A stretch of 64,000 nucleotides of DNA from an uncultured Collinsella sp. (GTDB taxonomy: Bacteria > Actinomycetota > Coriobacteriia > Coriobacteriales > Coriobacteriaceae), in contig UQHN01000004.1 of assembly GCA_900540835.1 (NCBI GenBank), forward strand, positions 165 to 64,164, in the 5' to 3' direction. Of this stretch, positions 1 to 55,153 are shown one piece after another. The notes under the pieces are model-generated. The model did not search any database. It was not told the DNA's origin and worked only from the letters and a program-made list of their open reading frames with translations. How positions within the stretch are numbered: position 1 is the first letter of the stretch; the number at the start of each line of letters is the position of its first letter. Position numbers and translations under genes: made by a program.

Positions 1-50
1 GACTCCTGCCACATGCATGACAGGGGTTAAACACAAAAAAGGAGTCAACT

Positions 51-314
51 ATGGTTTCTGAGAAGGCTACCCTCGTTAATCCTCAGGGTCTGCACATGCG
101 TCCGGCTGGTCTGTTCGCCTCCACCATGGGCAAGTACGCCTGTGACGTGACGGTCGTCACCCCCGAGAAGGAGGTCAACGGCAAGTCCCCGATGGCCCTC
201 ATGGCTGCTGGTATCCCCTGCGGCACCGAGGTCGAGGTCAAGTGCGACGGCGCCGACGAGGCCGAGGCTCTGGCTGCTGCCATCGAGCTCATCAAGAGCG
301 GTCTTGGCGAGTAG
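51..314 (+). CDS. ptsH: Phosphocarrier protein HPr
   Basis: 87 aa with active-site motif GLHMRPAG (His15 region) and the Ser46 region (KSPMALM). RBS aaggag sits 5-10 nt upstream. Confidence 0.9.
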   Translation: MVSEKATLVNPQGLHMRPAGLFASTMGKYACDVTVVTPEKEVNGKSPMALMAAGIPCGTEVEVKCDGADEAEALAAAIELIKSGLGE

Positions 315-441
315 AACTCAAACGGGTCGCATGTTGAACAACTAAGTTCATATTTGGGGGCGCAGTGACCTGTCTTAAGGTAGCTGCGCTCTTTTGTCAT
401 GGATATGGCAAAACGCTTTATCACATGACACGGAGAGAGGA

Positions 442-2151
442 ATGGGAATGTATCAGGGAGTCAACGCTTCCGAGGGCATCGGTATCGGCACCGTCATGGT
501 CGCCGTCGATCCCGACTTGACGTTTGAGCCGCACGAGGTTGCTGATTCGGCAGCAGAGAAGGAGCGCTATCAGTCCGCTCTTTCGGTCTTCTGCGAGAAG
601 ACCCAGGCTCAGGCCGACCACATGAAGGAGACGGTGGGCGAGGCCGAGGCCGAGATCATGAGCGGACACATTGTCCTTGCTCAGGACCCGGGCATGACCG
701 ACGCCATCAACGCCGCCATTGACGGCGGCACCTGTGCCGAGCAGGCGCTCATGGACACCTCGACCATGTTCGAGAACATGTTCCTGTCCATGGACGACGA
801 GATGTTCCGTCTGCGCGCGGCCGACATCGCCGACATCCGCACCGGTATTCTGGCCGAGCTGCTGGGCAAGGAGGTCGTCGACCTCTCCGTCCTGCCCGAG
901 AATACCGTCGTTGTCGTGCACGACCTCACGCCGTCCATGACCGCCACGATCGATAAGGCCCACGTTGCCGGTATCGTCACCGAGACCGGTGGCCGCACGT
1001 CGCACTCCGCGATCATTGCGCGCGCCCTCGAGATCCCGGCTGTCCTTTCGGTTTCCAACAGCTGCACCGCGTTGCGCAACGGTATGACCGTTGTCGTCGA
1101 CGGTGGCAAGGGTATCGTCGAGGCCGATCCCGACGAGGAGACGCTCGCTGCCTACACCGCCAAGGCCGAGGCCTTCGCTGCCGAGAAGGCAGCCCTCGAG
1201 GCCTTCCGTGGCAAGCCGTCCGTGACTGCCGATGGCATCAAGAAGATCATCGCCTGCAACATCGGTAACCCCGATGACGTGCCCAACGCGCTCGATCACG
1301 ACGCCGAGGCTATCGGTCTGTTCCGCTCCGAGTTCCTGTTCATGGACTCTGCTGAGCTTCCTTCCGAGGAGGAGCAGTTCAACGCCTATCGTAAGGTCGC
1401 CAGCGCGCTCAAGGGTGCTCCGGTCATCATCCGCACGCTCGATGTGGGCGGCGACAAGGAGATTCCGTATCTGCACATGGTCAAGGAAGAGAACCCCTTC
1501 ATGGGCTTCCGCGCCGTGCGTTACTGCCTGGCCAATCCCGACCAGTACAAGGTTCAGCTCCGCGCCCTGCTGCGCGCCAGCGCCTTTGGTGACGTCAAGA
1601 TCATGATCCCGCTCGTCACCTGCGTCGAGGAGGTCGTGGCCGTCAAGGAGCTCGTCGAGCAGTGCAAGGCCGAGCTGACCGAAGAGGGTCGCAAGTTCAA
1701 CGAGAACATCGAGGTCGGCATTATGGTCGAGACGCCTGCCGCCTCGCTGCTCGCTGACCGTCTGGCCGAGGTCGCCGACTTCTTCTCTATCGGCACCAAC
1801 GACCTCATCGGCTACACCATGTGCGCCGACCGTGGCAACGACACCATCTCCAACCTGTACCAGGTGTACTATCCCGCCGTGCTCCGCTCGCTCAAGAACA
1901 TCATCGAGAGCGGCGTGAAGGCCGGTATCATGGTCGGCATGTGCGGCGAGGCCGCTGCCGATCCGCTGCTTGAGCCGCTGCTGATCAGCTGGGGCCTGGA
2001 GGAGTTCTCGATGAGCGCTCCGTCCATCCTGCGCGCCCGCAAGACCATCAGCCAGTGGACCAAGGCCGAGTGTGACGAGCTCGCCGAGAAGGCACTCGCC
2101 TGCAACACTGCCGCCGAGGTCAAGGCGCTGCTCGAGTCTGCTGCTCGCTAA
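442..2151 (+). CDS. ptsI: PTS enzyme I (phosphoenolpyruvate-protein phosphotransferase)
   Basis: PEP-utilizing enzyme motifs GGRTSHSAIIARALEIPAV, the IRTLDVGGDK swivel region and a C-terminal TIM-barrel region. The ORF opens at 394; start at ATG 442/448 is preferred because RBS ggagagagg lies at 432-440. Confidence 0.9.
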   Translation: MGMYQGVNASEGIGIGTVMVAVDPDLTFEPHEVADSAAEKERYQSALSVFCEKTQAQADHMKETVGEAEAEIMSGHIVLAQDPGMTDAINAAIDGGTCAEQALMDTSTMFENMFLSMDDEMFRLRAADIADIRTGILAELLGKEVVDLSVLPENTVVVVHDLTPSMTATIDKAHVAGIVTETGGRTSHSAIIARALEIPAVLSVSNSCTALRNGMTVVVDGGKGIVEADPDEETLAAYTAKAEAFAAEKAALEAFRGKPSVTADGIKKIIACNIGNPDDVPNALDHDAEAIGLFRSEFLFMDSAELPSEEEQFNAYRKVASALKGAPVIIRTLDVGGDKEIPYLHMVKEENPFMGFRAVRYCLANPDQYKVQLRALLRASAFGDVKIMIPLVTCVEEVVAVKELVEQCKAELTEEGRKFNENIEVGIMVETPAASLLADRLAEVADFFSIGTNDLIGYTMCADRGNDTISNLYQVYYPAVLRSLKNIIESGVKAGIMVGMCGEAAADPLLEPLLISWGLEEFSMSAPSILRARKTISQWTKAECDELAEKALACNTAAEVKALLESAAR

Positions 2152-2225
2152 TTTGGTATCAGAGGTAACCGCGTGGTTGGAATGGGCCAATCACGCGGCC
2201 CTCACATATACAGGGGGTACTGTAA

Positions 2226-3158
2226 ATGTTCTACACGCTAACCGCTAACCCGGCTGTCGACATGACGGTTTCGAGCTCTCCGCTCGAGCCCGACGAGAAC
2301 GTCCGCACCGGCTCGGCCAGCTACACGGCTAACGGCAAGGGCCTCGACGTGTCCTTCGCCTTTAAGAAGATGGGCGTCGACACCGTCGCGCTCGGTTTCT
2401 TCGCCGGCTTCACGGGCAAGTTCATCGTCGAGGAGGTCATGAACCTGGGTTGCCTCTGCCGCCCGGTCTGGACCGACGGTATCACGCGCATCAACACCTA
2501 CGTCAACGATGGCCAGCACGAGTACGGCATCCTGAACCCCGGTGCTCCGATCACGCCGCAGCATCAGGAGGAGCTCTACAACATCCTGGACACCGCGGGC
2601 GACCTTGAGTGCCTGATCGTCTCCGGCTCCGTGCCTCCCAAAGCTACGCCCGACTTCCTGGCTCAGGTCATGGAGCACGCTCAGGCCCGTGGCGCCGACG
2701 TCGTCCTGGACCTGTCCTCCGACAAGCTCAAGGAGCTCGCTCACAAGAAGCCGCTGCTCATTAAGCCGAACCATCACGAGATGAAGGCTATCTTCGGCGT
2801 GCCGGTCGACACCGACGACGAGGTCCGCGTTGCCATGAAGCTGGCTCACGAGGCCGGCGTCCAGAACGTGCTGCTCACCCGTGGTAGCCGCGGTGACGCT
2901 TACTTCTCCAACGGCGAGGACATCTGGTATGCCAAGCGTGAGTTCAACATCAAGCTTGTCTCTTCCGTCTGCGCCGGCGACTGCACCCTCGCTGCGTTCC
3001 TGCACAAGTGGTACAGGGATCGCGACAACGTCGAGGAGGCCATGAAGCTCGCTATGGCCACCGGCGCCAACGTTGCTGAGTCCGTCGGCATCGGCGACTT
3101 TGGTCACGTCGACGAGTACAGCAAGCGCGTTGCCGTTCGCAAGCTCGATCGCAAGTAA
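2226..3158 (+). CDS. fruK: 1-phosphofructokinase / PfkB-family sugar kinase
   Basis: 310 aa with the N-terminal MFYTLTANPAVD, GG-K-N motifs and the PfkB C-terminal signature (GAGDCTLAAFL). It lies directly downstream of ptsI. Confidence 0.8.
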   Translation: MFYTLTANPAVDMTVSSSPLEPDENVRTGSASYTANGKGLDVSFAFKKMGVDTVALGFFAGFTGKFIVEEVMNLGCLCRPVWTDGITRINTYVNDGQHEYGILNPGAPITPQHQEELYNILDTAGDLECLIVSGSVPPKATPDFLAQVMEHAQARGADVVLDLSSDKLKELAHKKPLLIKPNHHEMKAIFGVPVDTDDEVRVAMKLAHEAGVQNVLLTRGSRGDAYFSNGEDIWYAKREFNIKLVSSVCAGDCTLAAFLHKWYRDRDNVEEAMKLAMATGANVAESVGIGDFGHVDEYSKRVAVRKLDRK

Positions 3159-3185
3159 GCGAAACACTACAAACTCGTGCGCATA

Positions 3186-3220
3186 CGGCGTCCCGGTTTC
3201 GACCGGGGCGCCGTTTTTTG
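3186..3220 (+). terminator. Rho-independent terminator after fruK
   Basis: GC-rich hairpin cggcgtcccggt-ttcg-accggggcgccg followed by TTTTTTG. Confidence 0.6.
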
Positions 3221-3341
3221 TCCCACTCGAACCTCGGAGCCGCGCTTCACGCGTTCCACACCGTTCACCGAGTTGTTGTAGCCTTTTGCCGAAGCGTGGA
3301 ATATACTTTCATTAACACGTTGCTTCGTGAAAGGAACATTC

Positions 3342-4274
3342 ATGATTTACACGCTTACTGCAAATCCCGCTATTGACTACAACATCTCCTGCGATGGCTT
3401 GTCCGCCAACACCGTTACCCGCACCCGTAACGCTGTCTACACCCCCAACGGCAAGGGTCTCAACGTTTCGTTTACGCTCGACCACTACGGCGTCGACACC
3501 ACGATCCTGGGCTTCTTCGCCGGCTTCTCGGGTGAGTATATCGTTAAGGGCGCCGAGGCCCTGGGCGTGCCCGTCAAGCCCGTGTGGACTGACGGCATCA
3601 CGCGTGTCAACGTGTTCCTCAATGCCGGTCCCGACACCGAGTACAACATGGTCAACGCCGGTGCCGCCATCAACGAGGCCAACGAGCAGGAGATGTTTGA
3701 GCTGATCGATTCGCTCGAGGACATGACCTGCCTGGTCATTAGCGGCTCGCTGCCCCCCAACACCTCTGAGGGCTTCCTGGCCGAGGTGCTTCGCCGCGTT
3801 AAGGCAAAGGGCGCCGAGTTCGTGCTCGATATTTCGAGCCATCAGTTGGCCGACCTCATTGCCATGGAGCCGCTGCTGATCAAGCCCAATGACGACGAGC
3901 TGCTCGACATCTTTGGCATTAAGGTGAGCGGCGGCGACGATGAGTCCGTCAAGGCTGCCATGGCCGAGCTGCATGCCAAGGGCGCCAAGAACGTGCTGTT
4001 GACCCTGGGTGGCGCCGGCGCGTACTTCTCCAACGGCGAGCACATCTGGTTTGCCAACCGTACCTTTGAGGTCAAGCTGCTGTCGACCGTTTGCGCCGGT
4101 GACTCTTCGCTGGCCGCCTTCCTGTCCGTGTGGCACGACGCTCCCGAGCGCGTCGAGGACGCCCTGCGCCTCTCGATGGCCACCGGCGCCAACGTGGTCG
4201 AGTGCCCGGGTCTGGGCGATTTTGCCAAGGTCGATGAGTATCAGAAGGGTATTGCAATTCGTCAGGTTTGCTAG
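3342..4274 (+). CDS. Second PfkB-family kinase (1-phosphofructokinase / tagatose-6-P kinase paralog)
   Basis: Begins MIYTLTANPAIDYN, parallel to the upstream paralog, and ends with the PfkB GAGDSSLAAFL motif. RBS aaagga sits before ATG 3342; the ORF track starts at 3327. Confidence 0.8.
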   Translation: MIYTLTANPAIDYNISCDGLSANTVTRTRNAVYTPNGKGLNVSFTLDHYGVDTTILGFFAGFSGEYIVKGAEALGVPVKPVWTDGITRVNVFLNAGPDTEYNMVNAGAAINEANEQEMFELIDSLEDMTCLVISGSLPPNTSEGFLAEVLRRVKAKGAEFVLDISSHQLADLIAMEPLLIKPNDDELLDIFGIKVSGGDDESVKAAMAELHAKGAKNVLLTLGGAGAYFSNGEHIWFANRTFEVKLLSTVCAGDSSLAAFLSVWHDAPERVEDALRLSMATGANVVECPGLGDFAKVDEYQKGIAIRQVC

Positions 4275-4308
4275 TTCCGGCACCTTGCCTGAATAGTTCA
4301 ATTATTTC

Positions 4309-4345
4309 GCATCCGTCTTAGACCAGGACGGATGCGTTTTTGTTT
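4309..4345 (+). terminator. Rho-independent terminator
   Basis: Hairpin gcatccgtc-ttagaccag-gacggatgc followed by gtttttgttt. Confidence 0.65.
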
Positions 4346-4438
4346 ATCGGACTTGCGTGTGCAGTGGAGGCTGTTTCTTGCTAGACTTCTTGCAGACGCA
4401 ATCGATAGCCAATTTGATAGTCGCAGGAGGCCATAGGC

Positions 4439-5845
4439 ATGTGCAATGTTTCGCTCAACGGTACGCAGCCGACCGATGCCTCTATCCGTGTCCTGCGTGC
4501 GCTTGAGGCAGCAGGTCTTGAGGCTTGGTACGTGGGCGGTTGGGTACGTGATGCCCTGATGGGACGCCCCAGCCACGATGTTGACATGTGCTGCAGCGGC
4601 CTGTGGCAGGAGTCCAAAGAGGCGCTCGAAGCGGCTGATATTGCCGTGGTTGAGTCGGGCATAAAATTTGGCGGCATCACGGCTATTTGCGATGATGAGC
4701 GCATTGAGGTCACCACCTACCGCCTAGACGGCTTTTACACCGACGGCCGCCATCCCCAGAGTGTGGAGCGTGCGGCGTCGCTTGAGGACGATCTGGCGCG
4801 TCGTGACTTTACCGTTAACGCTATGGCCTGGCATCCCGAGCGTGGTCTTGTCGACCGCTACGATGGTCAGGGCGACCTAGACCGCAAGCTCATCCGCGCC
4901 GTTGGAGATCCCAAGCGTCGTTTTAACGAGGACGCGCTTCGCATGCTGCGCGCGGTGCGTTTTGCCTGCCGTCTGGATTTTATGATCGAGCCTAAGACTA
5001 AACAGGCGCTTGCCGAGTGCGCGCCGCTGCTCGATGCTGTGGCGCGCGAGCGCGTGGGCATTGAGCTCGAGGGTATCCTTTCGACCGGCCATGGGGGAGA
5101 CGCGATGCTGCGCTACCCCGAGCTTGTTTGCGCCGCCGTGCCCGAGCTCGCGTCCGCTCGCGGGTTTGATCAACGCAGCGTCTATCATGCGTTTAACGTC
5201 TACGAGCATATCGCCCGCGTGCTGACGGTGGCAGGGGAGCTGGCGCTGTGCGACGGCGTCGCGCCCTCGTCGAGCCTTATGTGGGCGGCGTTTTTGCACG
5301 ACGTTTCCAAACCCGAGTGCTTTACGGTCGATCACGACGGCAGCGGCCACTTCTACGGTCATCCCGAGCTCGGCGCCAAGAAGGCGCGTGTCATCATGGA
5401 TCGCCTGGCGCTCTCGCACGATTTGGTGCGCGATGTGTGCCTGCTGATCAAATACCATGACAAGCCGCTGCGCCCCGAGCGCTCCTGCCTGCTCAATATG
5501 ATGCGCGCGCTTTCGGGCGAGGGTGTCGATACGCCGCGTCTGATGGACGAGCTCATGGACCTTAAGCGTGCCGACACGCTCGGCAAGGCGCCCTCGTGCT
5601 TCTATTACGTCGAGACGATCGAGGAGATGCGTACGCTCGCCCACGATCTGCTGCAGGCGGGGGAGCCCTATACACTCAAGATGCTTGCCATCAATGGTGG
5701 CGACCTGATCCGCGCCGGCGTCAAGCCGGGGCCGGAGCTGGGACAGCTTCTCAACGCCGCCCTCGACGCCGTGATCGAGGACAACATCCCCAACGATCGC
5801 GAAACCCTTTTGGTTCATCTCAACTTGAACTATCTAACCAGTTGA
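4439..5845 (+). CDS. cca: CCA-adding tRNA nucleotidyltransferase with HD domain
   Basis: PolyA-polymerase head motif GGWVRDALMGRPSHDVDM and RDFTVNAMA, plus a C-terminal HD domain (HDVSKP... KYHDKP). Confidence 0.85.
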   Translation: MCNVSLNGTQPTDASIRVLRALEAAGLEAWYVGGWVRDALMGRPSHDVDMCCSGLWQESKEALEAADIAVVESGIKFGGITAICDDERIEVTTYRLDGFYTDGRHPQSVERAASLEDDLARRDFTVNAMAWHPERGLVDRYDGQGDLDRKLIRAVGDPKRRFNEDALRMLRAVRFACRLDFMIEPKTKQALAECAPLLDAVARERVGIELEGILSTGHGGDAMLRYPELVCAAVPELASARGFDQRSVYHAFNVYEHIARVLTVAGELALCDGVAPSSSLMWAAFLHDVSKPECFTVDHDGSGHFYGHPELGAKKARVIMDRLALSHDLVRDVCLLIKYHDKPLRPERSCLLNMMRALSGEGVDTPRLMDELMDLKRADTLGKAPSCFYYVETIEEMRTLAHDLLQAGEPYTLKMLAINGGDLIRAGVKPGPELGQLLNAALDAVIEDNIPNDRETLLVHLNLNYLTS

Positions 5846-5961: not shown

Positions 5962-6038
5962 GGCCCGTTCGTCTAGCGGTTTAGGACGCCGCCCTCTCAA
6001 GGCGGAGATCACCAGTTCGAATCTGGTACGGGCTACCA
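5962..6038 (+). tRNA. tRNA-Glu: tRNA-Glu (anticodon CUC)
   Basis: Cloverleaf closely parallels E. coli tRNA-Glu (TTCGTCTAG...GGTTCGAATCC). The anticodon loop is CTCTCAA, and the 3' end is A-CCA encoded. Confidence 0.9.
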
Positions 6039-8222: not shown

Positions 8223-8479
8223 GCGCAGGCTCGAGTTCGTGAGGCGCTTGTCGGGGTGCAGCCCGATCGATCAGGCGACGAGCATCCCGCCGAAGCAGTC
8301 GATGACCGGGCTCAGGTAGACCTTCTCGCCGCCCGGGAGCCTGAACTCGGTGATGTCGGTGAGCCACAGCAGGTTGGGCTCGTCGGCGTGGAAATTCCTG
8401 TTTACGAGGTTCTCCGGCGCCTTGTAGACCTCGCCGGCGTAGGAGCTGTAGCCTGAGGATCCTTAAAAGAAAGTCCAGT

Positions 8480-9796
8480 TTATCCTTTCCACCCCAATTG
8501 GGAATCCTCCGATGCGCCTTCGCACGCTCGCATGACCTCGATACCGTGCGAGCGTGCGAACTCGACGAGCTCTGCGTTGCGGGCGTTTATGGTGCCGAAG
8601 GCGGCGGGACACACGATAAGGCGCGCGCAGTGGACGAGGAGCTCTTTGGCGCGGGCTATGGTTCTATCCCCGATCGGCTCGAAGGCGCGCTCGGCCACGC
8701 ATTCCGCCGCCAGGTCGCGCGCGAGCTCGCAGTCGATGTCCCCTTCGTGCAGAACGCCCGTGTAGAACGCCTTGCCCTGCCGGATGAGCTGGCGAAACAC
8801 AGCCGACCCCGTACCTGCGCCGGCGATGACGAACGTGTGCGCATCGCCGTGCGGGCGTCCAATTTCCACGCTGCCGAAGCGCTCGTTGAAGGTGCCATGT
8901 TGAAGGCCGTAGAGCTCGCCAATCGTCTCGCGCGTGAATATGTCCTCGGGTGCGCCGGCGCGGAAGACCCGGCCGTCCTTCACGCAAATCACCTTGTCGG
9001 CGCTTTTCTGCGCGAGCTCGAGTTCGTGGATGGACATGATGACAGCCACATTCCGCGATTTCGCAAGGTGGCGAAGTATTCGCAGCAGGTCGATCTGGTA
9101 GCGGATATCGAGATATGACGTGGGCTCGTCGAGCACGAGCACACGCGGATCCTGCGCGATGGCGCGTGCGAGCATGACGCGCTGGCGTTGCCCGTCGCTT
9201 ATCTGCATGAAGTCGCGCTCGGCGAGCTCTTCCACATGTGCGGTTTTCATGGCCTCGTCGACCCGACTATGGTCGTCGGGCGAGAGTGTGCCCATTCGCC
9301 CGGTGTAGGGGTGCCTTCCCGCCTCTACGACATCGCGGCAGGTGAGGAGCTCGGTCCGGGGGCGATCTGTCAGCATAACGGCAAGGTTCCTTGCAAACTC
9401 CGCCGTCTTCCATCGGGAAATCTCCCGCCCGTCGAGCTCGACCGCGCCGGCAAGCGGTGCCAGATGGCGTGTGATGGTTTTCAAGATGGTCGACTTGCCC
9501 GAGCCGTTCGGCCCGATGAGCGCCACGACGTCGCCCGCGCGAACCTCCAGATCGACGCCTTCGACTACGACCTTCTTGTCGTAGCCCGCCGACAGGTCGC
9601 TTATGTGGAAAAGCGGCGCTCCGTCAGCCTGCGTTTCGACCGTAGTTTCGAGGTTCGGCTCCGCTCGGAGGAGGCGTTCCGCGCGCAGTTCCGCACGAGC
9701 CGAAAGTGCCTTCTGGCGCTTTCGTGCGAGCTCAGGACTGTCTAAGCATGGAATGTCCCCTTCGAGCGTTTTGGGCCGCGGCACGAATTCCCCCAT
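8480..9796 (-). CDS. ABC transporter ATP-binding protein (FecE/BtuD-like) with an extra ~125 aa C-terminal Rossmann-like domain
   Basis: Walker A GPNGSGKST, the LSGG-like region, and Walker B LVLDEPTSYLD. The C-terminal extension is FVIAGAGTGSAVF...CPAAFGT. Its start is adjacent to the permease stop, consistent with translational coupling. Confidence 0.85.
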   Translation of the reverse strand: MGEFVPRPKTLEGDIPCLDSPELARKRQKALSARAELRAERLLRAEPNLETTVETQADGAPLFHISDLSAGYDKKVVVEGVDLEVRAGDVVALIGPNGSGKSTILKTITRHLAPLAGAVELDGREISRWKTAEFARNLAVMLTDRPRTELLTCRDVVEAGRHPYTGRMGTLSPDDHSRVDEAMKTAHVEELAERDFMQISDGQRQRVMLARAIAQDPRVLVLDEPTSYLDIRYQIDLLRILRHLAKSRNVAVIMSIHELELAQKSADKVICVKDGRVFRAGAPEDIFTRETIGELYGLQHGTFNERFGSVEIGRPHGDAHTFVIAGAGTGSAVFRQLIRQGKAFYTGVLHEGDIDCELARDLAAECVAERAFEPIGDRTIARAKELLVHCARLIVCPAAFGTINARNAELVEFARSHGIEVMRACEGASEDSQLGWKG

Positions 9797-10837
9797 CTAC
9801 CTCACCCGCTTCTTCAACATGAGCGCGATAACCACCGGAGCGCCGAAGATGGCGGTGACGGCGCTGATGGAAAGCTCGACGGGAGAGAACAGCGTGCGCG
9901 CGATCAAATCGCAGCCCGCGCAGAAGATGGCGCCTCCCAAGAAGCACGCAGGAATCACGCGGATGGGCTTCGACGACTTTAGCGCCGACTTCACGAGATG
10001 CGGAACCGCGATGCCTACGAACGACACCGGACCAGCGAACGCGGTCACGCAGGCGGAGAGCATGCTCGCTAGAAGGACGAGCACCACGCGGAAGCGTTCG
10101 ACGTTCACGCCGACGCTTTTCGCGTAGGCTTCTCCCAGCTGGAAGGCGGAAAGGGGCTTCGATATCGCGAATACGCATGCGCTCACGGTGATCACCACGA
10201 CCGCGATGACCGCGATGTCGTCCCAGCTCGAACCCGAGAAGCTACCCAAAGACCAGTTGTGCAGGTTCACGATGGACTGGTCGTCGGCGAAGGCGATGAG
10301 GAAGTTCGTCGCCGCCGAGCAGATGTATCCCACCATGACGCCCGCAACGATGAGCATGGCCATGGAACTTATGCGCCGTGCGATGAGGAGCACGAAGCCG
10401 ATGGTGATAAGCGAGCCCAGAAACGCTGCGGCCACCATGGCCGGCGAAGACATGGCCATGTTCGCGCCTAGAAGTACGATCATCGTAAGCGCGACGACGA
10501 ACTTTGCGCCCGAGGAGACGCCCAAGATGAACGGGTCGGCGATGGGGTTGTTGAAAAACGTCTGCAGCAGGAACCCGGAAAGCGAAAGTGCCCCGCCGAG
10601 AAGCACGGCTGAAAGCACGCGCGGCAGGCGAATCTCCCAGATGACCTGGCTTTCCATGGAATTGGCCGCGCCGCCCGAAAGGATGCCGGGGATGTGGTCT
10701 GCGGGCACGAGCACGCTCCCGATGCACAGGTTGGCCCCGACGAGCACGATGAGGGCAACAGCGAGCAGCGCCGTCACGACGCGACACCGCGCGGCGCGCC
10801 CCGATTCGTCGTATGCCATGGAAAGCCGGCTTCTCAT
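9797..10837 (-). CDS. FecCD-family ABC permease (BtuC-like, iron-siderophore/cobalamin type)
   Basis: About 9 TM helices and the FecCD signature RLPRVLSAVLLGGALSLSGFLLQTFFNNPIADPFILGVSSGA. Confidence 0.9.
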   Translation of the reverse strand: MRSRLSMAYDESGRAARCRVVTALLAVALIVLVGANLCIGSVLVPADHIPGILSGGAANSMESQVIWEIRLPRVLSAVLLGGALSLSGFLLQTFFNNPIADPFILGVSSGAKFVVALTMIVLLGANMAMSSPAMVAAAFLGSLITIGFVLLIARRISSMAMLIVAGVMVGYICSAATNFLIAFADDQSIVNLHNWSLGSFSGSSWDDIAVIAVVVITVSACVFAISKPLSAFQLGEAYAKSVGVNVERFRVVLVLLASMLSACVTAFAGPVSFVGIAVPHLVKSALKSSKPIRVIPACFLGGAIFCAGCDLIARTLFSPVELSISAVTAIFGAPVVIALMLKKRVR

Positions 10838-10841
10838 GGCG

Positions 10842-12413
10842 CTAACCGAGCTTCCTCAGATAATGGAAGTCGCTCGCGTCATCGCCGGTGAACGCCCCGT
10901 GCAGCTCGTCGATAATGTCGGCGGTAGAAGTCATCTGCTGGTACATGTCGGCGCTTGTGACCCAGACGTTGCCGTTCTTCACGGCTTTGAACTGCGACAA
11001 TAGCGCGTTTTTGCCTACGAAGTCGTTCAAGGTGGCAACCGATTCGTCGATGGTGCCGTTGTAGACGATGATGTCGGCATCCTTCGCTGTCGCGTAGAAG
11101 CGCTCCATTTCGAGCGTTACTGACGAACCTGACGTCGACGCCGTCTGCGCGTCATCGAGTGCGTAGCTGCCGCCTGCAAGCTCGATCATCTGCGCCACGT
11201 AGTCGCCCGCCCGCCGCGTGACGGCGGCCCCGTTCGAGTTAATGTAGAAATACGCCACGGTTTTACCTGACGACGCGAGCCCCGACGTTTGCTCGACGCG
11301 GGCCTTCTGCTCGTTGAACAGGTGCGTGGCCTCGTCTTCCTTGTCGAACAGGACGCCGAAAAGCTTAATCCACTCGACGCGCCCGAGTGCTTTGGGCTCG
11401 CTCGACGACTGTTCGGTGAGCACGACGAGCCCGAGCTTCTGCAGCTTTTCCTTCACATCGGGCGTGTGGTTGATCATGGTGTTCTCGATGGCGAGCGTGC
11501 AGCCCGAGGCCGATATTCGCTCGTAGTCGGGCGCGCTGTACTTGCCGCCGTAGGCGATCGCCCCACTTCCGAGCGCGCTTTTGAAGCCCGCGACCGAGCA
11601 ATCGTCGGCTTTCGTGCCCGACATTAAGATATTGTCGTTCGCATCGAGCGCGTCGACCAGGCACATCGTCGCCGACGACACGAGGTACACCTTGTCGGCG
11701 GGGCGCCTTATGACCGCGATGTCGGAGCTTAACCCATCAGGTACCTTCGCATCTTGCGGCACCACGAGGAAGCGCTCCCCGTTCGAAACGCAGATAAGCC
11801 GCAGGCCGCCTTCGAACTCGTCGACAGTGAAGTGCTCGGCGTATTCAAGCTGAAGCGCTCCCGTCGGCTCCCAGCCGCAGCCCAAATCGGCGTTGTGGAA
11901 GTCGGCCGCGGCGCTTGAAGCCGTTCCCGCAGGGGAGCCGCCGCTTGCATCGTCGCCCGATTTCTCCTTCATGGTGGATGAGTCGAAGTGGAGCGTGTAG
12001 TCGATGGTGTGCGGCGTCGACATGGCGACGGTCTCGGCCGACACGGCGATGTCCTCGTCGAGCGTGACGGGTATCTCGAACGTGGAGTTGCCGCCGTCGT
12101 TTACGGGCGCGTAGTCCACGCCGTCGACGGTCATCTTGTCGTAGTTCGAACTCGACCAGGTGATGGTCGCGGTGTAGGTGTCGCCATCCTTCACAATTGT
12201 GGTGGGTGAGGCGATGCTTGCGCGCCCTGACCCGCCGGAAAGCGAGACGCTCACCGTGTATTCCTGAGAGCCCGCCGTGCCACCGGTCGCGTTCGGGCTC
12301 GCACTGCACCCCGCGAAGGGAAGCGCGAGCAGGGCGACGAGAACGCAGGCGATCGCGCGCGCCGCGATGCTGTGGAGCTTCCTGTTTTCCCCCTTGGGAA
12401 GAATCGACCGCAT
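10842..12413 (-). CDS. Periplasmic-binding-protein lipoprotein (BtuF/FecB-like class III SBP) with an extra N-terminal beta-rich domain
   Basis: Signal peptide plus lipobox LALPFAGCSAS. The C-terminal ~300 aa are PBP-like (LICVSNGERFLVVPQ..., tryptophan/aromatic-rich). The N-terminal ~150 aa domain is paralogous to the adjacent small lipoprotein. Confidence 0.8.
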   Translation of the reverse strand: MRSILPKGENRKLHSIAARAIACVLVALLALPFAGCSASPNATGGTAGSQEYTVSVSLSGGSGRASIASPTTIVKDGDTYTATITWSSSNYDKMTVDGVDYAPVNDGGNSTFEIPVTLDEDIAVSAETVAMSTPHTIDYTLHFDSSTMKEKSGDDASGGSPAGTASSAAADFHNADLGCGWEPTGALQLEYAEHFTVDEFEGGLRLICVSNGERFLVVPQDAKVPDGLSSDIAVIRRPADKVYLVSSATMCLVDALDANDNILMSGTKADDCSVAGFKSALGSGAIAYGGKYSAPDYERISASGCTLAIENTMINHTPDVKEKLQKLGLVVLTEQSSSEPKALGRVEWIKLFGVLFDKEDEATHLFNEQKARVEQTSGLASSGKTVAYFYINSNGAAVTRRAGDYVAQMIELAGGSYALDDAQTASTSGSSVTLEMERFYATAKDADIIVYNGTIDESVATLNDFVGKNALLSQFKAVKNGNVWVTSADMYQQMTSTADIIDELHGAFTGDDASDFHYLRKLG

Positions 12414-12417
12414 GGCG

Positions 12418-12951
12418 TTACTTCAGTGCGTCGGCGCGCAGATCGACGCCGGCGGATTCGAACACAAGTGTGCGGTCGTACCACTGCTCTTTTCTAATAC
12501 TCCACGCGGCACAGGCGGTGTCCTCGTCGAGCGCATCAACGGGCACGTCGTAGGTGTACTTGCCTTCCGCGTTTTCCACATAGGGGATGAAGTCGGCCTC
12601 GCTCGCGGCGGCAGCCTCGTCGCCCGTGCCCATGAAGAGCTTGCCGTAGCCCGTGCCGGAAAGCGTCATCACGCAGTGCATGGAGCCGTTTTCCACGATG
12701 AGCTGGGCGTCCACGATCCTGAACATGTTCGAGCTGGAATCTACGGTGATTGGATAGGTGCCGTCGGCCACCTTGTCGGCGGTGATGGGGGCAGCGCTTG
12801 CGCCCGCGGGCGCATCGGCCGCCTGTTCGGTCTTTTCCTGGGAATCGGCATCGCTTGCCTTTGCGCTGTCGATTGAATTTCCGGCGCAGCCGGCGAGCGA
12901 GAACGCGCAAAGCGCCGCCGACAGGGCGAAGACGAGGGTTTTCTTCAACAT
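12418..12951 (-). CDS. Small secreted lipoprotein of unknown function (paralog of the SBP N-domain)
   Basis: MLKKTLVFALSAALCAFSLAGCAG (lipobox), with an RBS before ATG 12951; the ORF track opens at 13026. Beta-rich, with motif DVPVDALDEDTACAAWS. Confidence 0.6.
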   Translation of the reverse strand: MLKKTLVFALSAALCAFSLAGCAGNSIDSAKASDADSQEKTEQAADAPAGASAAPITADKVADGTYPITVDSSSNMFRIVDAQLIVENGSMHCVMTLSGTGYGKLFMGTGDEAAAASEADFIPYVENAEGKYTYDVPVDALDEDTACAAWSIRKEQWYDRTLVFESAGVDLRADALK

Positions 12952-13097
12952 GGAGGGGGTTCCTTTCAATCGCTTCGACCGCCCGTGCCGTGCGGTGGGC
13001 GGTCGGGATGCGAATGCAACGGGCATGCGTCGTCAGTCGGGGAAAGGCGCATGCCCGTTGCACGGGGACGCGACCGGCGCCCCCGTGCGCGGCGAGT

Positions 13098-14027
13098 TTA
13101 CAGCTTGGCGATGGCGTCGTCCACGTGCGAGACGTAGATGTCGTCGACCGCGACGTTCTGTCCCAGACCCTGGAGCAGGCACGTCACTTCGAAGCCGGCG
13201 GCCACGAACTTCGCAGCCCAGCTGTCGGGGTCGGTCTCGTCTGCCATGTCGTTGTTCGCGTGGTCGCCCGCGACCACCATGAACGGCGCGAGCACGGCCT
13301 TCTTGTAGCCTGCGGCGCTCGCGGCGGCGATAACATCCTCGCAGGTCGGTTCAGCCTCGACGGTGCCGACGAAGAACTGCGTCAAACCCTCGTTCTTGAA
13401 CACTTCCTGCATCTTGGCATAGTCGGCGTTGGAATCGGCTTCGGTGCCGTGGCCCATGAGGCACAGCGCCGTCTCGCCGTCGTCGAAGGACGCCATGTTC
13501 TCCTTAATGGCTGCGGCCACCTTTTTGTAGTCGTCGTCGGAGGTGAGCAGCGGGTCGCCGAGCGAGATCTTGTCGAACTTGTCGGCGTACTTGTCGAGCT
13601 CGTCTTTCACGTCGGCGTATTCCAGGCCAGCCATGAGATGCGTCGGCTGCACGACGATTTCCTTCACGCCGTCTTCCACGCAGCGGTCAAGCGCCTCGGT
13701 CATGTTGTCGATCGTGATGCCGTCGCGCTTCTTCAGCTTGTCGATGATGATCTGCGCGGTGAAGGCGCGGCGGATGTCGTAGTCCTGCCAGTACTTCTCG
13801 CGGATAGCGTCTTCGATGGCGCCGATGGTGATGTGGCGCGAGTCGTTGTAGCTCGTGCCGAAGCTCGTGACGAGGATGACCGGCTTCGCGGCCTTCTCCT
13901 TTTCACTAGATTTCTCGGAACTCGCGGAGGTGTTGGAGCAGCCCGCGAGCGCGACTCCGGCGAGCGCGACGGCTCCGGTTGCTGCGGCGCCCATGAAGCC
14001 GCGGCGTGACATCTGGTCGGACATGGT
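13098..14027 (-). CDS. cbiK: CbiK-like sirohydrochlorin cobaltochelatase homolog carrying a Tat signal and lipobox (exported)
   Basis: MSDQMSRRGFMGAAATGAVALAGVALAGCS gives a twin-arginine motif plus LAGC lipobox. The mature part has CbiK class-II chelatase features (ILVTSFGTSY, LMGHGTE, VVAGDHANND). Start was remapped to ATG 14027; the ORF track opens at 14111. Confidence 0.8.
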   Translation of the reverse strand, partial: TMSDQMSRRGFMGAAATGAVALAGVALAGCSNTSASSEKSSEKEKAAKPVILVTSFGTSYNDSRHITIGAIEDAIREKYWQDYDIRRAFTAQIIIDKLKKRDGITIDNMTEALDRCVEDGVKEIVVQPTHLMAGLEYADVKDELDKYADKFDKISLGDPLLTSDDDYKKVAAAIKENMASFDDGETALCLMGHGTEADSNADYAKMQEVFKNEGLTQFFVGTVEAEPTCEDVIAAASAAGYKKAVLAPFMVVAGDHANNDMADETDPDSWAAKFVAAGFEVTCLLQGLGQNVAVDDIYVSHVDDAIAKL

Positions 14028-14039
14028 TTTTCCTTTCCT

Positions 14040-14260
14040 CGGTTTGCCGGTCCCCCGGCGACAGTTGCTTGTCGGCACAAGCGAAAGAAAAGCGCACCCC
14101 TCGGGGTTCACAAGGAGCTAACGCCACGGCGATGCCGTGAGGAAAAGGCGAAGCAGTCTGGCTTGGGGCGCGAGGCGGTTCGCCCGCGCGTCCTATACAG
14201 TAATGTCCCTTGCCCAGGATTCCCACCTGGTTCCCTCCGCAAGCCAGCGCGGGCTGTGCA
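14040..14260 (-). promoter_or_regulatory. Cobalamin (AdoCbl) riboswitch in the 5' leader of the cbiK-lipoprotein-btuFCD operon
   Basis: The minus-strand transcript contains GGGAAccaGGTGggAATCCtgg (coords ~14213-14238) and then ...ACTGTat.... Near the RBS it has a B12-box-like GCAACTGTCGCCGGGGGACCGGC. The leader is ~230 nt ahead of a B12-transport operon. Confidence 0.6.
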
Positions 14261-14482
14261 GGCGCCGCGCCGGTCATTTCCTTTTATCCGATTGTCATAT
14301 GCTCGTTGCCGAAACTTTTACTATGATAGTGGGCACTTGTGAACGTGTCAAAGCCAGCGCGGGCGGCATTGCGCCTCCTGCCTGCGTATTTGCGCCGATT
14401 GCTGCCGCAGGCGCCGTGTTTTGCCCGCTGCGCGAATGGCGGCGTAAACGGTTGCGATGAGAAACGGGAAGGGAAGGCTCGG

Positions 14483-15274
14483 ATGATTCATATCGTTGGC
14501 GCAGGCTCTGGCGCCGCCGACCTTATCACGCTGCGCGGGGCGCGCCTTCTGCACGCGGCCGACGTGGTCGTTTGGGCGGGGAGCCTTGTGAACCCCGAGC
14601 TGCTCGCTGAGTGCAAGGAATCCTGCATCGTCTACGACAGCGCGCACATGACCTTGGAGGAAGTGCTCGACGTGATGTGCGCGGCAGATGCGCGGGGCGA
14701 GGAAGTGGTGCGCCTGCACACGGGCGACCCGTGCCTGTACGGCGCCATCCAGGAGCAGATGGACGCGCTCGACGCGCGCGGCGTGGACTACGAGGTGGTG
14801 CCCGGCGTGTCGAGCTTTTGCGGTGCCGCGGCGGCGCTTCGCCAGGAATACACGCTGCCGGGAATCAGCCAGTCGGTCGTGATCACGCGGCTTTCCGGGC
14901 GCACCCCCATGCCTGCGGGCGAGGGCATGCGCACCATGGCGGAAAGCGGCTCGACTATGGTCATCTTCCTGAGCTCGGGTATGCTCGCCGAGCTTTCCGC
15001 CGAGCTTTTGGCCGCGGGCCGCAGCTCCGACGAGCCGGCGGCGCTCGTGTATAAGGCGACCTGGCCTGAGGAGCGCGTGGTGCGATGCACAGTGGGCACG
15101 CTCGCCGATGCGGGCGCGCGAGAGGGCATCGACCGCACGGCGCTCGTGGTGGTGGGCCGCGTGCTCGGAGCTCGCGGCGGGCTTGCGCACGACGGCGCGC
15201 AAGCGGAGTCGTACGAGCGCAGCAAGCTTTACGACCCTTCGTTTGCCACGGGGTATCGGAAGGCGAGCAGCTAG
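14483..15274 (+). CDS. cbiF: Cobalt-precorrin-4 C11-methyltransferase
   Basis: Tetrapyrrole methylase with IHIVGAGSGAADLITLRGARLL and GDPCLYG motifs; start MIHIVGAG. Confidence 0.9.
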   Translation: MIHIVGAGSGAADLITLRGARLLHAADVVVWAGSLVNPELLAECKESCIVYDSAHMTLEEVLDVMCAADARGEEVVRLHTGDPCLYGAIQEQMDALDARGVDYEVVPGVSSFCGAAAALRQEYTLPGISQSVVITRLSGRTPMPAGEGMRTMAESGSTMVIFLSSGMLAELSAELLAAGRSSDEPAALVYKATWPEERVVRCTVGTLADAGAREGIDRTALVVVGRVLGARGGLAHDGAQAESYERSKLYDPSFATGYRKASS

Positions 15275-15275
15275 C

Positions 15276-16460
15276 GTGGCCTTCGAGCACTACATATATA
15301 CCGGGACGACCCGCCTGCGCTGCGGCTACACCACGGGGAGCTGCGCCGCTCTCGCGGCGAAGGCGGCCTGCGAGATGCTCTTGTCACGAAAGACCGTGGG
15401 CCGCGTGTCGATCGTCACCCCCGGCGGGCTGCCCGTCGAGACGGACGTGGTCGACGTATGCATCGGCGAGGGGTGCGCCCAGTGCGCCGTGCGAAAGGAC
15501 GCAGGCGACGATGCCGATGTGACCGACGGCGTGCTCGTGTACGCGCTCGTGGAACATGCGGGGCCGGGCACGGGCGCTGCGGGCAGCAAGGGCGTGCCCG
15601 CGCGCGAATCGGAAGTTTCCGTCGATGGCGGCGTGGGCGTGGGGCGCGTGACGTTGCCCGGGCTTGAGCAGCCGGTGGGGGCGGCCGCCATCAACGCGAC
15701 GCCGCGCGCGATGATCACTTCGGCGGTGCGCGAGGTGTGCGCCGCGCACGGCTTTTCTGGAAATATTGCTGTGACGATTTCGGTACCCGAGGGTGTTGCC
15801 CTTGCCGAAAAGACCTTCAACCCGCACCTGGGGATAGAGGACGGCATCTCCATCCTGGGTACGACGGGCATCGTCGAGCCGCGCAGCCTCGCTGCCTTGC
15901 GCGACAGCATCGAGCTCGAGATCCGGCAGCATGCGGCTATGGGGCGGCGCGGAGTCGTGCTCACGCCCGGCAACTACGGCGGGCAGTTCATCTCGGGGCA
16001 TTTCCACCTAAACGGTGCGCCGGTGGTCTTCATCTCCAACTTTGTGGGCGATGCGATTGATTGCTGCGTTCGCGAGGGATTTACCAATGTCCTTCTTGTG
16101 GGACACATCGGCAAGCTAGTGAAGGTCGCGGGCGGCATCATGGACACCCATTCGCGTACCGCCGACTGCCGCGCGGAGATTCTGGCCGCCCACGCGGCCT
16201 TGGCCGGCGCGGGCGCGAAGACCGTGCACGAGATCATGTCGTCGGTCACGACCACGACGGCGCTTGAGGTAATCGAGGCCGCCGGCGTGGGGGACGCTGT
16301 GCGCGCCTCGCTCGCTGCGGCAATCGAGGACAGGTTGCGCCGCCGCGCGGCGGGCGCATGCGACATCGCCGCGGTCGTGTTCGACGCCGGGCGCCGCGAG
16401 CTTTTCCGCACGTCGGGCGCCGATGCTGTTATCGGGGAATTGGGGGCGACGTATGAGTAA
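15276..16460 (+). CDS. cbiD: Cobalt-precorrin-5B C1-methyltransferase
   Basis: Conserved LRCGYTTGSCAALAAKAA N-terminal motif. GTG start lies immediately after the cbiF stop; the ORF track opens further upstream at 15108. Confidence 0.85.
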   Translation: MAFEHYIYTGTTRLRCGYTTGSCAALAAKAACEMLLSRKTVGRVSIVTPGGLPVETDVVDVCIGEGCAQCAVRKDAGDDADVTDGVLVYALVEHAGPGTGAAGSKGVPARESEVSVDGGVGVGRVTLPGLEQPVGAAAINATPRAMITSAVREVCAAHGFSGNIAVTISVPEGVALAEKTFNPHLGIEDGISILGTTGIVEPRSLAALRDSIELEIRQHAAMGRRGVVLTPGNYGGQFISGHFHLNGAPVVFISNFVGDAIDCCVREGFTNVLLVGHIGKLVKVAGGIMDTHSRTADCRAEILAAHAALAGAGAKTVHEIMSSVTTTTALEVIEAAGVGDAVRASLAAAIEDRLRRRAAGACDIAAVVFDAGRRELFRTSGADAVIGELGATYE

Positions 16461-31039: not shown

Positions 31040-31156
31040 AAGTTGCGGTGAAATAGTGTCTGTTTTAGCTGCTAGATAGCATATTCAGTCCCTGATTCAC
31101 CGCAACTTGTTGGTGGTGGCTTACTGGTAGCTGGTGGTGGCTTACTGGTAGCGTAG
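31040..31156. repeat. Inverted repeat plus a 21-nt tandem duplication in the convergent intergenic region
   Basis: Perfect 12-bp inverted repeat AGTTGCGGTGAA ... TTCACCGCAACT around a ~45 nt AT-rich spacer, followed by TGGTGGTGGCTTACTGGTAGC x2; the second copy overlaps the stop of the permease gene. Confidence 0.7.
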
Positions 31157-51225: not shown

Positions 51226-51430
51226 AGTACGGTCCAGTTCTATACAGTCATGGCCAACGGGCCATGGGCTAAACGCACAGTACTTAAGTATATCGTTGCA
51301 CTTTAGTTGTATAAACTACAGCCGCTCATTATCGGCGAACGGTTGTCCTAGAAAATCGTTTTACCATCCACATTATCGCGATACTCGAAAACGCCTATGT
51401 AGATAGTATTTGTAGCCAAACAAAACAGCT

Positions 51431-51564
51431 CCGGTTTACTACGACGAATTGAATGATCTCAACCACAGTCATTTTAGTGATATTAAAACTGCAGGTAGAA
51501 GCGTTGCCAATTTCGATGATTACTCGCCGTGGTCGGCCGGAGCCATTTTGTCGTAGTAAACCGG
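51431..51564. repeat. Intergenic repeat element, family 2 copy B
   Basis: Terminal inverted repeat CCGGTTTACTACGAC / GTCGTAGTAAACCGG. The core AAAACTGCAGGTAGAAGCGTTGCC sits at the same offset as in copy A, and total length is the same. Confidence 0.7.
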
Positions 51565-51594
51565 CCCTCTTTTTAATGCGGGGTTCAACCAAGA

Positions 51595-51627
51595 AGAGGG
51601 CGCCTGCTTGGGGCGCCCTCTTTTGCG
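51595..51627 (-). terminator. Hairpin downstream of glgA (possible bidirectional terminator)
   Basis: AGAGGGCGCC-tgcttg-GGGCGCCCTCT with T-runs on both flanks. Confidence 0.4.
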
Positions 51628-51654
51628 TTGAGGATTAAGTTTTAATCGTCAGGA

Positions 51655-55149: not shown

Positions 55150-55153
55150 CGGA

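Follow-up and report, generated by a model that had tools for sequence, protein, structure and literature searches.

An operon of an uncultured Collinsella with a cobalamin-riboswitch-like leader, a lipoprotein-type CbiK homologue, predicted NEAT-fold domains and a FecCD-type importer

Exported homologues of the chelatase CbiK, encoded together with a FecCD-type ATP-binding cassette (ABC) importer and a B12 riboswitch, are already on record for Porphyromonas gingivalis and Desulfovibrio. Here an operon of related composition is described from the minus strand (8480-14027) of a 64,000-nucleotide (nt) stretch of DNA, called the window in the following, from an uncultured Collinsella sp. (GenBank assembly GCA_900540835.1, contig UQHN01000004.1). 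The source organism was placed in the Collinsella aerofaciens group, and a plasmid megablast search gave no match. The operon encodes a lipoprotein-type CbiK homologue, a small lipoprotein with a domain A, a substrate-binding protein (SBP) with an N-terminal domain B, a permease and an ATPase. New are the Gram-positive form with a CbiK lipoprotein of the twin-arginine (Tat) or Sec type, a divergent subfamily of the NEAT fold (as predicted by structure modelling) as partner of CbiK, a series of gene fusions and the link to precorrin-2 auxotrophy. A literature search found no paper on a CbiK/NEAT/ABC module in Gram-positive bacteria, and a 2026 review describes extracellular cobamide capture in this group as entirely uncharacterised (PMC13616437).

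In P. gingivalis, the ihtABCDE operon encodes, as does the window, a surface CbiK-homologous lipoprotein (IhtB = FetB, structure 9b86) beside a binding protein, a FecCD-type permease and an ATPase, and upstream of it lies a riboswitch for coenzyme B12 (PMC3764172). The host, like Collinsella, is reported to lack precorrin-2 synthesis (PMC6461909). FetB is an active chelatase at the cell surface which inserts cobalt and manganese into porphyrins, so a surface CbiK lipoprotein is capable of chelatase work (PMC13065792). In contrast to the window, iht belongs to a Gram-negative bacterium, includes the TonB-dependent BtuB-like receptor IhtA and has no NEAT-like domains; it is interpreted in the field as a haem/iron system. 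The window CbiK differs from FetB in its Tat-type signal, and it resembles the biosynthetic CbiK more than it resembles FetB. The puzzle of a cbi pathway without its precursor was reportedly posed by P. gingivalis as well (Roper et al., around 2000).

CbiKP of D. vulgaris (2xvx) is likewise exported, and its gene stands under a B12 element together with those of a FecCD-type importer (PMC545781); its active-site residues align with those of the window protein. Control of cbiK-cbiL and btuCDF by a single B12 element has been described for Desulfovibrio (PMC545781). Unlike the window CbiK, CbiKP is periplasmic and soluble, and it has no NEAT-like partners. According to Lobo et al. (2008), it is said to carry a Sec signal and not to be a lipoprotein. 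The comparison with CbiKP and IhtB had been drawn in a first-pass annotation of the window, made from the sequence alone, and it is apt in that both loci have been published as B12-riboswitch-linked (PMC545781; PMC3764172).

The Isd haem relay (IsdA/B/C/H, then IsdE and IsdF) resembles the window in placing surface NEAT folds before a class III binding lipoprotein and a FecCD permease, and multi-NEAT proteins occur in the A/B family of the window (up to six copies) as they do in Isd. The window differs in that the YxxxY motif is missing, the anchors are of the lipoprotein or transmembrane type instead of sortase-dependent, the putative control is by a B12-type riboswitch and not by iron, a chelatase stands in place of the haemoglobin receptor, and the operon has no IsdG/I haem oxygenase. 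Sortase-anchored NEAT domains, an IsdE-type SBP, iron regulation and a haem oxygenase, by which Isd systems are recognised, were not found in the operon. BtuFCD and the BtuJ/H/K/G relay of Bacteroides are riboswitch-repressed type II importers behind several ligand-passing surface lipoproteins, a plan similar to that of the window (PMC13616437). The Bacteroides binders are, however, neither NEAT nor CbiK proteins, and the window departs from BtuFCD by the lack of detectable BtuF similarity in its binding protein and by NCBIfam scores below the equivalog cut-offs.

Exported CbiK, leader and operon layout

The locus had been read in the first-pass annotation as five co-directional minus-strand genes in which a B12-riboswitch-type leader gates an extracytoplasmic CbiK lipoprotein and a FecCD-type importer. 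This reading was supported; all five genes were found at the positions claimed, behind a shared leader, by the open reading frame listing and family scans (Table 1). The window shows the features common to the exported-CbiK group, i.e., a signal peptide, an adjoining FecCD-type importer and a B12-riboswitch-type leader upstream. The architecture, the surface location and the B12-type control are put forward with high confidence.

The N-terminus of the window CbiK reads MSDQMSRRGFMGAAATGAVALAGVALAGC followed by SNTS, and contains the twin-arginine motif (SRRGFMG) and the lipobox (LAGC) that had been claimed for it; signal-peptide and lipobox calls in this report are motif readings. The protein thus has an N-terminal lipoprotein signal instead of the cytoplasmic location expected of a CbiK of the cbi pathway. 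The TAT signal model TIGR01409 yielded a score of 16.2 (cut-off 16.7), and the stronger argument for export is the conservation of the signal across lineages, not this score. SRRxF and a lipobox are common to six Coriobacteriia lineages (the window and loci L086, L088, L089, L090 and L091), whereas the Firmicutes orthologues (L083, L084 and L087) have Sec-type lipoprotein signals at the same position; a lipoprotein signal was present in CbiK orthologues of all ten lineages examined, from two phyla. No ATG is found between the signal and the conserved domain start KPVILVTSFGTSY.

The match to Pfam CbiK (PF06180) is full-length (265.6 bits, profile positions 3-261 of 262). With the NCBIfam equivalog model NF047852 the score was 227 bits, which is below the cut-off of 400, and the protein is therefore regarded as a family member and not called an equivalog. 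The best solved relatives were S. enterica CbiK (1qgo, 4e-44), P. gingivalis FetB (9b86, 5.9e-38) and D. vulgaris CbiKP (2xvx, 3.5e-33), in this order. In the alignment with 1qgo, the catalytic residues His145, Glu175 and His207 (S. enterica numbering) correspond to MGHGTE, GTVEAE and AGDHAN of the window CbiK, so that both active-site histidines, for which a check had been proposed, and the glutamate are present. The triad is also retained in the CbiK proteins of L083, L084, L086 and L087.

The sigma-70-like promoter shows 11 of 12 consensus matches, is the sole such site in 8300-14600 and is located about 35 nt upstream of the aptamer; a Shine-Dalgarno-like sequence (GAGGAAAGGA) precedes the cbiK ATG at 14027. 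The stem of the terminator-like hairpin and its UGUGAACCCCGA loop are kept in L088, L089 and L091, whereas the U-tract is not; the hairpin is likely to be the expression platform, acting by transcription attenuation.

Regarding the aptamer, an Rfam scan of the whole window at gathering score yielded no riboswitch, but only two tRNA genes. A permissive local scan gave a match to RF00174 at 14157-14284 with 15.2 bits (gathering 31.5; E 0.17 in a 700-nt scan), in which 70 nt of the P6 extension were deleted and the B12 box of the window leader was misplaced by the Rfam alignment. The leader of L089 matched RF01482 with 25.8 bits (gathering 50). The aptamer core is nevertheless invariant across four divergent Coriobacteriia lineages and is followed by a variable hairpin and then the B12 box; GGGAA..GGUG..AAUCC, ACUGU and the B12 box AGCCAG..GC were invariant in the window, L030, L053, L074, L088, L089 and L091. 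RNAalifold folded the leaders into a P1-closed multi-helix junction. In the trimmed alignment, compensatory changes were seen in 13 of 33 pairs, and 96.9% of the cells were paired compared with at most 54% when the partners were slid, values reached by none of 500 shuffles, though only six sequences were available and they also yielded the structure.

A covariance model built from Coriobacteriia leaders only (R1) detected RF00174 riboswitches at the Rfam coordinates in L084 (29.2 bits, E 6e-5) and L083 (20.2 bits, E 2e-3). In each of the three Firmicutes loci, a canonical RF00174 riboswitch immediately precedes cbiK (L087, 90.8 bits; L084, 57.2; L083, 54.3). On the basis of the conserved core, the covariation and the reciprocal covariance-model hits, the leader is considered cobalamin-riboswitch-like and, as far as can be read from sequence comparison, a genuine but divergent cobalamin-type riboswitch. 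The earlier call of a cobalamin riboswitch thus failed the Rfam gathering test (15.2 versus 31.5), but stands on these three lines of support. In L086, where the module is located 3' of cbiJ, no riboswitch was found in the short cbiJ-cbiK gap even with the filters off.

Two observations were made on other riboswitches. The canonical riboswitch of L083 (6577-6762) was missed in a multi-locus scan at gathering score but found in a short-range scan; the speed filters of Rfam can therefore hide true hits in large inputs. In L088, on a Collinsella-like contig, a TPP riboswitch (16026-16149, minus strand, 64.4 bits) lies upstream of a thiamine-related cluster (HK, Thiamine_BP, TMP-TENI).

The junctions among the last four genes measure 0-4 nt, and a gap of 146 nt is found 3' of cbiK. 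This untranslated gap between cbiK and the domain A gene (12952-13097, minus strand) recurs with 54-149 nt in every locus in which both are separate genes (L083-L091), the other genes being tightly packed, and could hold a processing or stability element that sets the ratio of CbiK to the transporter.

Table 1. Positions of the operon features in the window (numbering of the 64,000-nt stretch)
Feature	Position	Strand	Details
Sigma-70-like promoter	14323-14351	-	TTGACA, 17-nt spacer, TATCAT; consensus match only
Divergent cobalamin-type aptamer, short P6 region (putative)	14135-14286	-	core GGAGGGAACCAGGUGGGAAUCCUGGGCAAGGGACAUUACUGU; B12 box AAGCCAGACUGC
Terminator-like hairpin	14086-14118	-	GCUCCUUGUGAACCCCGAGGGGU then GCGCUUUUCU; U-rich tail
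CbiK homologue, Tat-type lipoprotein, class II chelatase	13098-14027	-	309 aa; Pfam CbiK 5.5e-79, residues 51-306
Small lipoprotein with predicted NEAT-fold domain A	12418-12951	-	177 aa; domain residues ~60-170; no Pfam family
Predicted NEAT-fold domain B, N-terminal part of the binding protein	11964-12272	-	residues ~48-150
Lipoprotein with NEAT-B, linker and class III substrate-binding domain	10842-12413	-	523 aa; Peripla_BP_2 residues 245-488
FecCD-family permease (type II ABC importer)	9797-10837	-	Pfam FecCD 2.9e-81
ABC ATPase with C-terminal extra domain	8480-9796	-	438 aa; ABC_tran 3.4e-31; extra domain residues ~310-438

Predicted NEAT-fold domains, gene fusions and the importer

The small lipoprotein was present with the lipobox that had been claimed for it (LAGC), and its proposed paralogy with the N-terminal domain of the binding protein was borne out. 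Domains A and B are alike by BLASTP (E 4e-4) and by profile-profile comparison (98.3% probability, E 2.1e-14, 123 columns), the latter score deriving in part from aligned signal peptides, with an alignment that spans both domain cores. When the profiles of A and B were searched against solved structures by sequence, the matches were signal peptides or noise only. In structure prediction, however, both domains model as a NEAT fold, with the eight-strand beta-sandwich, and the best structural matches of the models were Hbp2-N2, IsdC, IsdB-N2 and IsdA. Regarding Pfam NEAT (PF05031, gathering 32.8 bits), window domain A scored 12.8 bits and domain B gave no hit, whereas the relatives P0079, P0098 and P0265 scored 29, 32.2 and 55 bits; by these scores the A/B family grades into NEAT. 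According to the models, A and B are a divergent NEAT subfamily and not a new fold.

The haem-ligand motif YxxxY on the last strand is absent from both domains; domain A has QWYDR and domain B has HTIDY (HxxxY) at what is presumably the site of IsdC Y132/Y136. Among the sampled sequences, AMSxPHxxxY is invariant in domain B, and the motif of domain A is AAWSI[RK]KExWYDR. Between the first strands, other residues are invariant as well (LSGGSGRA in B and SSSxMF in A), at what we take to be the position of the 3-10 'lip' helix of canonical NEAT domains. The NEAT pocket thus seems to be kept but chemically altered.

A search for the B family among 1.84 billion gave 1,593 cluster representatives at E<=1e-3, of which 1,275 remained at the stricter E<=1e-10. 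Some members (P0263, P0264, P0372, P0395 and others) are 880-1,605 aa long and have 3-6 copies of B-type domains with almost no other Pfam domain. A scan of a genome collection with the domain A profile gave 80 loci, all from Collinsella or unclassified Coriobacteriia/uncultured metagenome-assembled genomes (MAGs), which with 96-100% identity were too alike for covariation. An identity of the small lipoprotein with PplA (NF041941, E 1.4e-4) was rejected, as the match covers only the signal peptide and linker.

The five functions recur in the same order in Paratissierella segnis (L083; GCA_014385195.1), Harryflintia acetispora (L084; GCA_015550205.1), a Bacillota MAG (L087), Paratractidigestivibacter (L086 and L090) and other Coriobacteriia (L088, L089 and L091). 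Four loci were compared with the window proteins and showed 44-66% identity, the range for the Firmicutes loci being 44-62%. The arrangement of the window, with separate CbiK and A and with B fused to the SBP, is shared by L086, L088, L090 and L091. In L089, CbiK, A, a B domain with a transmembrane anchor and the SBP are all separate; in L083 and L084, A and B are fused between a separate CbiK and SBP; in L087, A is fused at the C-terminus of CbiK, followed by separate B and SBP. Among single proteins, A-B-SBP was found in P0305, A-B-B in P0265 and an A-B fusion in P0079, P0098, P0172 and P0234. All fusions seen join only neighbours in the order CbiK-A-B-SBP. Because neighbours of this chain are fused in other lineages, a hand-over from CbiK via A and B to the binding protein and then to the permease is proposed, an order considered fairly probable.

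In seven of the nine distinct loci (the window, L086, L087, L088, L089, L090 and L091), the module adjoins cbi genes, and in L087 it is located directly upstream of cbiA and the following genes in the same direction. The riboswitch, module and cbi genes of L087 (positions 1-5811, GCA_045534105.1) lie directly beside genes for an integrase, a MobL relaxase, an HTH protein and a sigma-70 region 4 protein, a setting that points to an integrative mobilisable element nearby; the module may have spread horizontally. In L086 (12512-16531, Paratractidigestivibacter), the genes next after the module encode a PocR-type sensor kinase, a regulator of the AraC type, shell proteins of a microcompartment and the large subunit of a B12-dependent diol/glycerol dehydratase; a B12-consuming pathway is thus located beside the uptake module.

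The binding protein has the lipobox FAGC. Since Peripla_BP_2 covers residues 245-488 only, the protein has an extra N-terminal domain, as had been stated in the first-pass annotation. It is orthologous to stand-alone binding proteins of 378-413 aa in L083, L084, L087 and L089. Its solved relatives are weak (Lmo2184, 9e-4; BauB, 5e-3), no match at the level of BtuF was found among solved structures, and the match to IsdE was also weak (7.6e-5; 22 bits, cut-off 298.65). The assignment of the permease to FecCD was confirmed (Table 1). The best NCBIfam match of the permease was BtuC (NF003001, 209.6 bits, cut-off 334), and that of the ATPase was the archaeal-type corrinoid ABC ATPase (NF007082, residues 61-400, 249 bits, cut-off 537). 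The families of BtuFCD are thus the best-scoring ones for permease and ATPase, yet all scores are under the curated cut-offs. An extra C-terminal domain of about 125 aa had been reported for the ATPase; the extension is present, but the domain is already catalogued, as orthologues carry PF27219 ('MJ0874') in it.

Residues 1-~60 of the ATPase (9617-9796, minus strand) are unmatched in orthologues, whose alignments begin at residue 62-67 and run to the C-terminus; either the true start is at an internal non-ATG codon or the N-terminus is a lineage-specific Collinsella extension. Protein P0132 (227 aa) of a Collinsella MAG stems from a NEAT-B::SBP gene with a frameshift behind the B domain, out-of-frame residues following ...SGGS; this split is probably an assembly error or a pseudogene and not a natural stand-alone B domain.

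The adjacent cbi operon and the candidate cargo

A plus-strand operon of the anaerobic cbi/cob pathway (14480-~30910), complete from cbiF to cbiJ, with cbiF, D, L, G, H, E/T, A, cobT, S, U/C, cbiB, cobD, cbiP, cbiC and cbiJ is located next to the uptake operon. It contains no chelatase, no cobalt transporter of the cbiMNQO type, no SUMT or hem precursor genes and no plus-strand riboswitch of its own; the only B12-type leader in the window is that of the divergent uptake operon. Apart from the exported CbiK, neither a chelatase nor a cobalt transporter was found elsewhere in the 64 kb, which extends to the remaining window the earlier remark that the adjacent cbi operon lacks a cytoplasmic chelatase. 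C. aerofaciens ATCC 25986, Collinsella sp. 4_8_47FAA and C. tanakaei were typed as 'precorrin-2' salvagers by Shelton et al. (Suppl. Table 10, in which about 65 rows are of this type), all five steps (ALA synthesis, PBG, HMB and UroIII synthases and precorrin-2 synthase) being absent from the three; 180 species, Collinsella included, were designated tetrapyrrole-precursor salvagers (PMC6461909). According to Rodionov et al., C. aerofaciens depends on B12 although its cbi set is complete, for which precorrin-2 auxotrophy is proposed (PMC6593275). No uptake route assigned for tetrapyrrole-precursor salvagers was found in the literature searched.

These findings would fit a system suited to a bacterium without an outer membrane and shut off by B12. 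From the promoter, transcription would run through a leader with the cobalamin-type aptamer and the terminator-like hairpin into the genes for three outward-facing, membrane-anchored lipoproteins (CbiK, the free NEAT-fold domain A and the NEAT-fold domain B fused to the SBP), and the FecCD permease and the ATPase with its extra C-terminal domain complete the importer. Metal-free sirohydrochlorin would be scavenged from outside and loaded with cobalt by the surface CbiK; cobalt-sirohydrochlorin, the substrate of CbiL, would then be handed along CbiK, A, B and the binding protein to the permease in the manner of the Isd haem relay, by which ring and cobalt would be supplied in one step. High B12 would close the entry via the riboswitch, and the same route may also admit ready-made corrinoids.

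Scavenging of sirohydrochlorin is proposed because every post-chelatase cbi enzyme is present and published genome surveys of Collinsella found no precorrin-2 route, and the published precorrin-2 auxotrophy turns the unclear role of CbiK into a concrete hypothesis. Cobalt insertion outside the cell would account for the intact active site of CbiK, the lack of a cytoplasmic chelatase and of a cobalt transporter, the persistence of the downstream cbi pathway, the position of the module beside or inside cbi operons, and, in the window, a riboswitch on the uptake operon and not on the cbi operon. The link of the module to B12, which rests on the riboswitches and the cbi adjacency in 7/9 loci, is firm, and that to tetrapyrroles, which rests on a tetrapyrrole chelatase, two predicted NEAT folds and a type II importer, is strong. 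With the cargo included, a B12-controlled system for surface capture, processing and import of a tetrapyrrole of the B12 pathway is a tentative reading, with not quite an even chance of being right; sirohydrochlorin or cobalt-sirohydrochlorin as the cargo itself is a possible assignment, held a little more loosely. A more speculative proposal is that the anaerobic B12 pathway of these bacteria starts outside the cell: sirohydrochlorin from neighbours would receive cobalt at the surface, NEAT domains re-tuned from haem to a cobalt isobacteriochlorin would pass it on, and ring and cobalt would be imported together through a single riboswitch-gated entry. This may perhaps extend to other precorrin-2 salvagers, and to P. 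gingivalis too.

Several points weigh against the import of cobalt-sirohydrochlorin. The Coriobacteriia leaders are below every Rfam threshold, and regulation by B12 is deduced from the leader; the Tat and lipobox call for the window CbiK is based on motifs, with TIGR01409 just short of its cut-off; the ligands are assigned from sequence, models and published context, and the relay order from fusions instead of measured transfer. A cytoplasmic CbiX/CbiK or a cobalt transporter may be encoded elsewhere in the genome, as the window covers only 64 kb, and the supply of sirohydrochlorin in the gut is an assumption. D. vulgaris is reported by Lobo et al. (2008) also to have a cytoplasmic CbiK and to make its own sirohydrochlorin; in view of this counter-example, an exported CbiK alone does not imply precursor salvage. 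Lastly, the best family matches of the importer, although under the cut-offs, are corrinoid components (BtuC and the corrinoid ATPase), and riboswitch-controlled FecCD importers are usually BtuFCD; for both reasons, plain corrinoid salvage is a strong rival. As C. aerofaciens grows when B12 is supplied, it must own a B12 importer, and the module may be that importer.

Salvage of corrinoids only is the main rival to the sirohydrochlorin reading and a serious possibility, though rated distinctly below an even chance. The operon would correspond to BtuFCD in a Gram-positive setting, finished cobamides or cobinamide would be bound by the NEAT-like domains and the CbiK-like lipoprotein and handed to the importer, and the CbiK site would be a binding pocket and not a catalyst. 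Besides the family matches, this agrees with the cobalamin riboswitches that precede the module, with the requirement of C. aerofaciens for B12 in culture, and hence its import of B12 (PMC6593275), with the multi-protein extracellular cobamide relays of Bacteroides, whose Gram-positive equivalent is described as uncharacterised (PMC13616437), and with the BtuB homology of IhtA, which is encoded beside the CbiK-like IhtB (PMC3764172). It leaves unexplained, however, why the catalytic triad is complete in every exported CbiK, with the biosynthetic CbiK as the nearest relative, why a complete cbi operon without a chelatase is adjacent, and how a precorrin-2 auxotroph uses the rest of the conserved cbi pathway; moreover, the binding protein has no detectable BtuF similarity, and the known corrinoid binders BtuG, BtuH and BtuJ are neither NEAT nor CbiK proteins (PMC13616437). 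Acquisition of haem or iron in an Isd- or Iht-like manner, with NEAT domains that bind haem, a CbiK that binds haem or removes iron and an importer for haem or iron, is improbable. NEAT is the classic fold of haem receptors in Gram-positive bacteria, haem is bound by CbiKP and FetB/IhtB (PMC13065792; PMC12094164), and the weak IsdE match of the binding protein (7.6e-5) points the same way; against this stand the cobalamin riboswitches of 3/3 Firmicutes loci and the homologous window leader without a visible iron regulator, the cbi genes adjoining 7/9 loci, the loss of YxxxY from A (QWYDR) and B (HTIDY), and an operon without sortase/LPXTG anchoring or a haem-degrading enzyme. FetB, furthermore, did not remove the metal from haemin, and neither iron nor haem elicits a response of the iht operon (PMC13065792; PMC12094164).

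Uptake of cobalt ions, in which the surface CbiK would be a Co(II) binder feeding the importer in replacement of the missing CbiMNQO, has a still smaller probability. It would match the lack of a cobalt transporter in the cbi operon and the window, and the position of the module at the head of the cbi gene row in L087; CbiMNQO genes, too, are often found inside cbi operons. Cobalt importers are also typically under B12 feedback (PMC7689651). The two tetrapyrrole-type NEAT domains would nevertheless be left without a role, and the fusions tie NEAT domains to both CbiK and the binding protein. FecCD/Peripla_BP_2 systems, in addition, carry chelates (siderophores, haem, B12) and not free ions. 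Haem uptake and cobalt-ion uptake thus both fit poorly. Least credible of all is a start-codon artefact, by which CbiK would serve the divergent cbi operon as its ordinary cytoplasmic chelatase and be located by chance beside an unrelated transporter: the marginal TIGR01409 score (16.2 versus 16.7) and the closeness to the biosynthetic S. enterica CbiK would allow it, but there is no ATG between the signal and KPVILVTSFGTSY, signal and lipobox recur in ten lineages of two phyla (Tat or Sec type at a constant position), the CbiK of L087 is fused to the extracytoplasmic domain A, and the gene order is kept across phyla.

The operon is a specific and testable candidate for the route by which precursor salvagers, which keep a costly cbi pathway without the means to make its substrate, obtain that substrate; it also ties this puzzle to exported CbiK proteins (CbiKP, IhtB/FetB) that have been filed under haem and iron. 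Should the pathway indeed start outside the cell, the missing transporter would be named and the puzzle of a full cbi set without precursor would be explained. NEAT domains would gain a role outside haem acquisition. Even if the cargo consists of ordinary corrinoids, no extracellular cobamide relay of Gram-positive gut bacteria would have been described before this one. As Collinsella is an abundant genus of the human gut, the system bears on the cross-feeding of B12 and its precursors.

The remaining window contains housekeeping and glycogen genes. Just downstream of the cbi operon, on the opposite strand (31142-34553, minus), a tripartite efflux set of the MacB type is encoded (HlyD-family adaptor, ABC ATPase and MacB/FtsX permease). 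The two tRNA genes are located at 5962-6035 and 62943-63015 (both on the plus strand). In the glycogen cluster (47929-61236), an alpha-amylase catalytic domain and a GH77 4-alpha-glucanotransferase are fused in one protein of 1,098 aa; a starch synthase, a nucleotidyl transferase, a glycogen phosphorylase and a branching enzyme are also encoded there.

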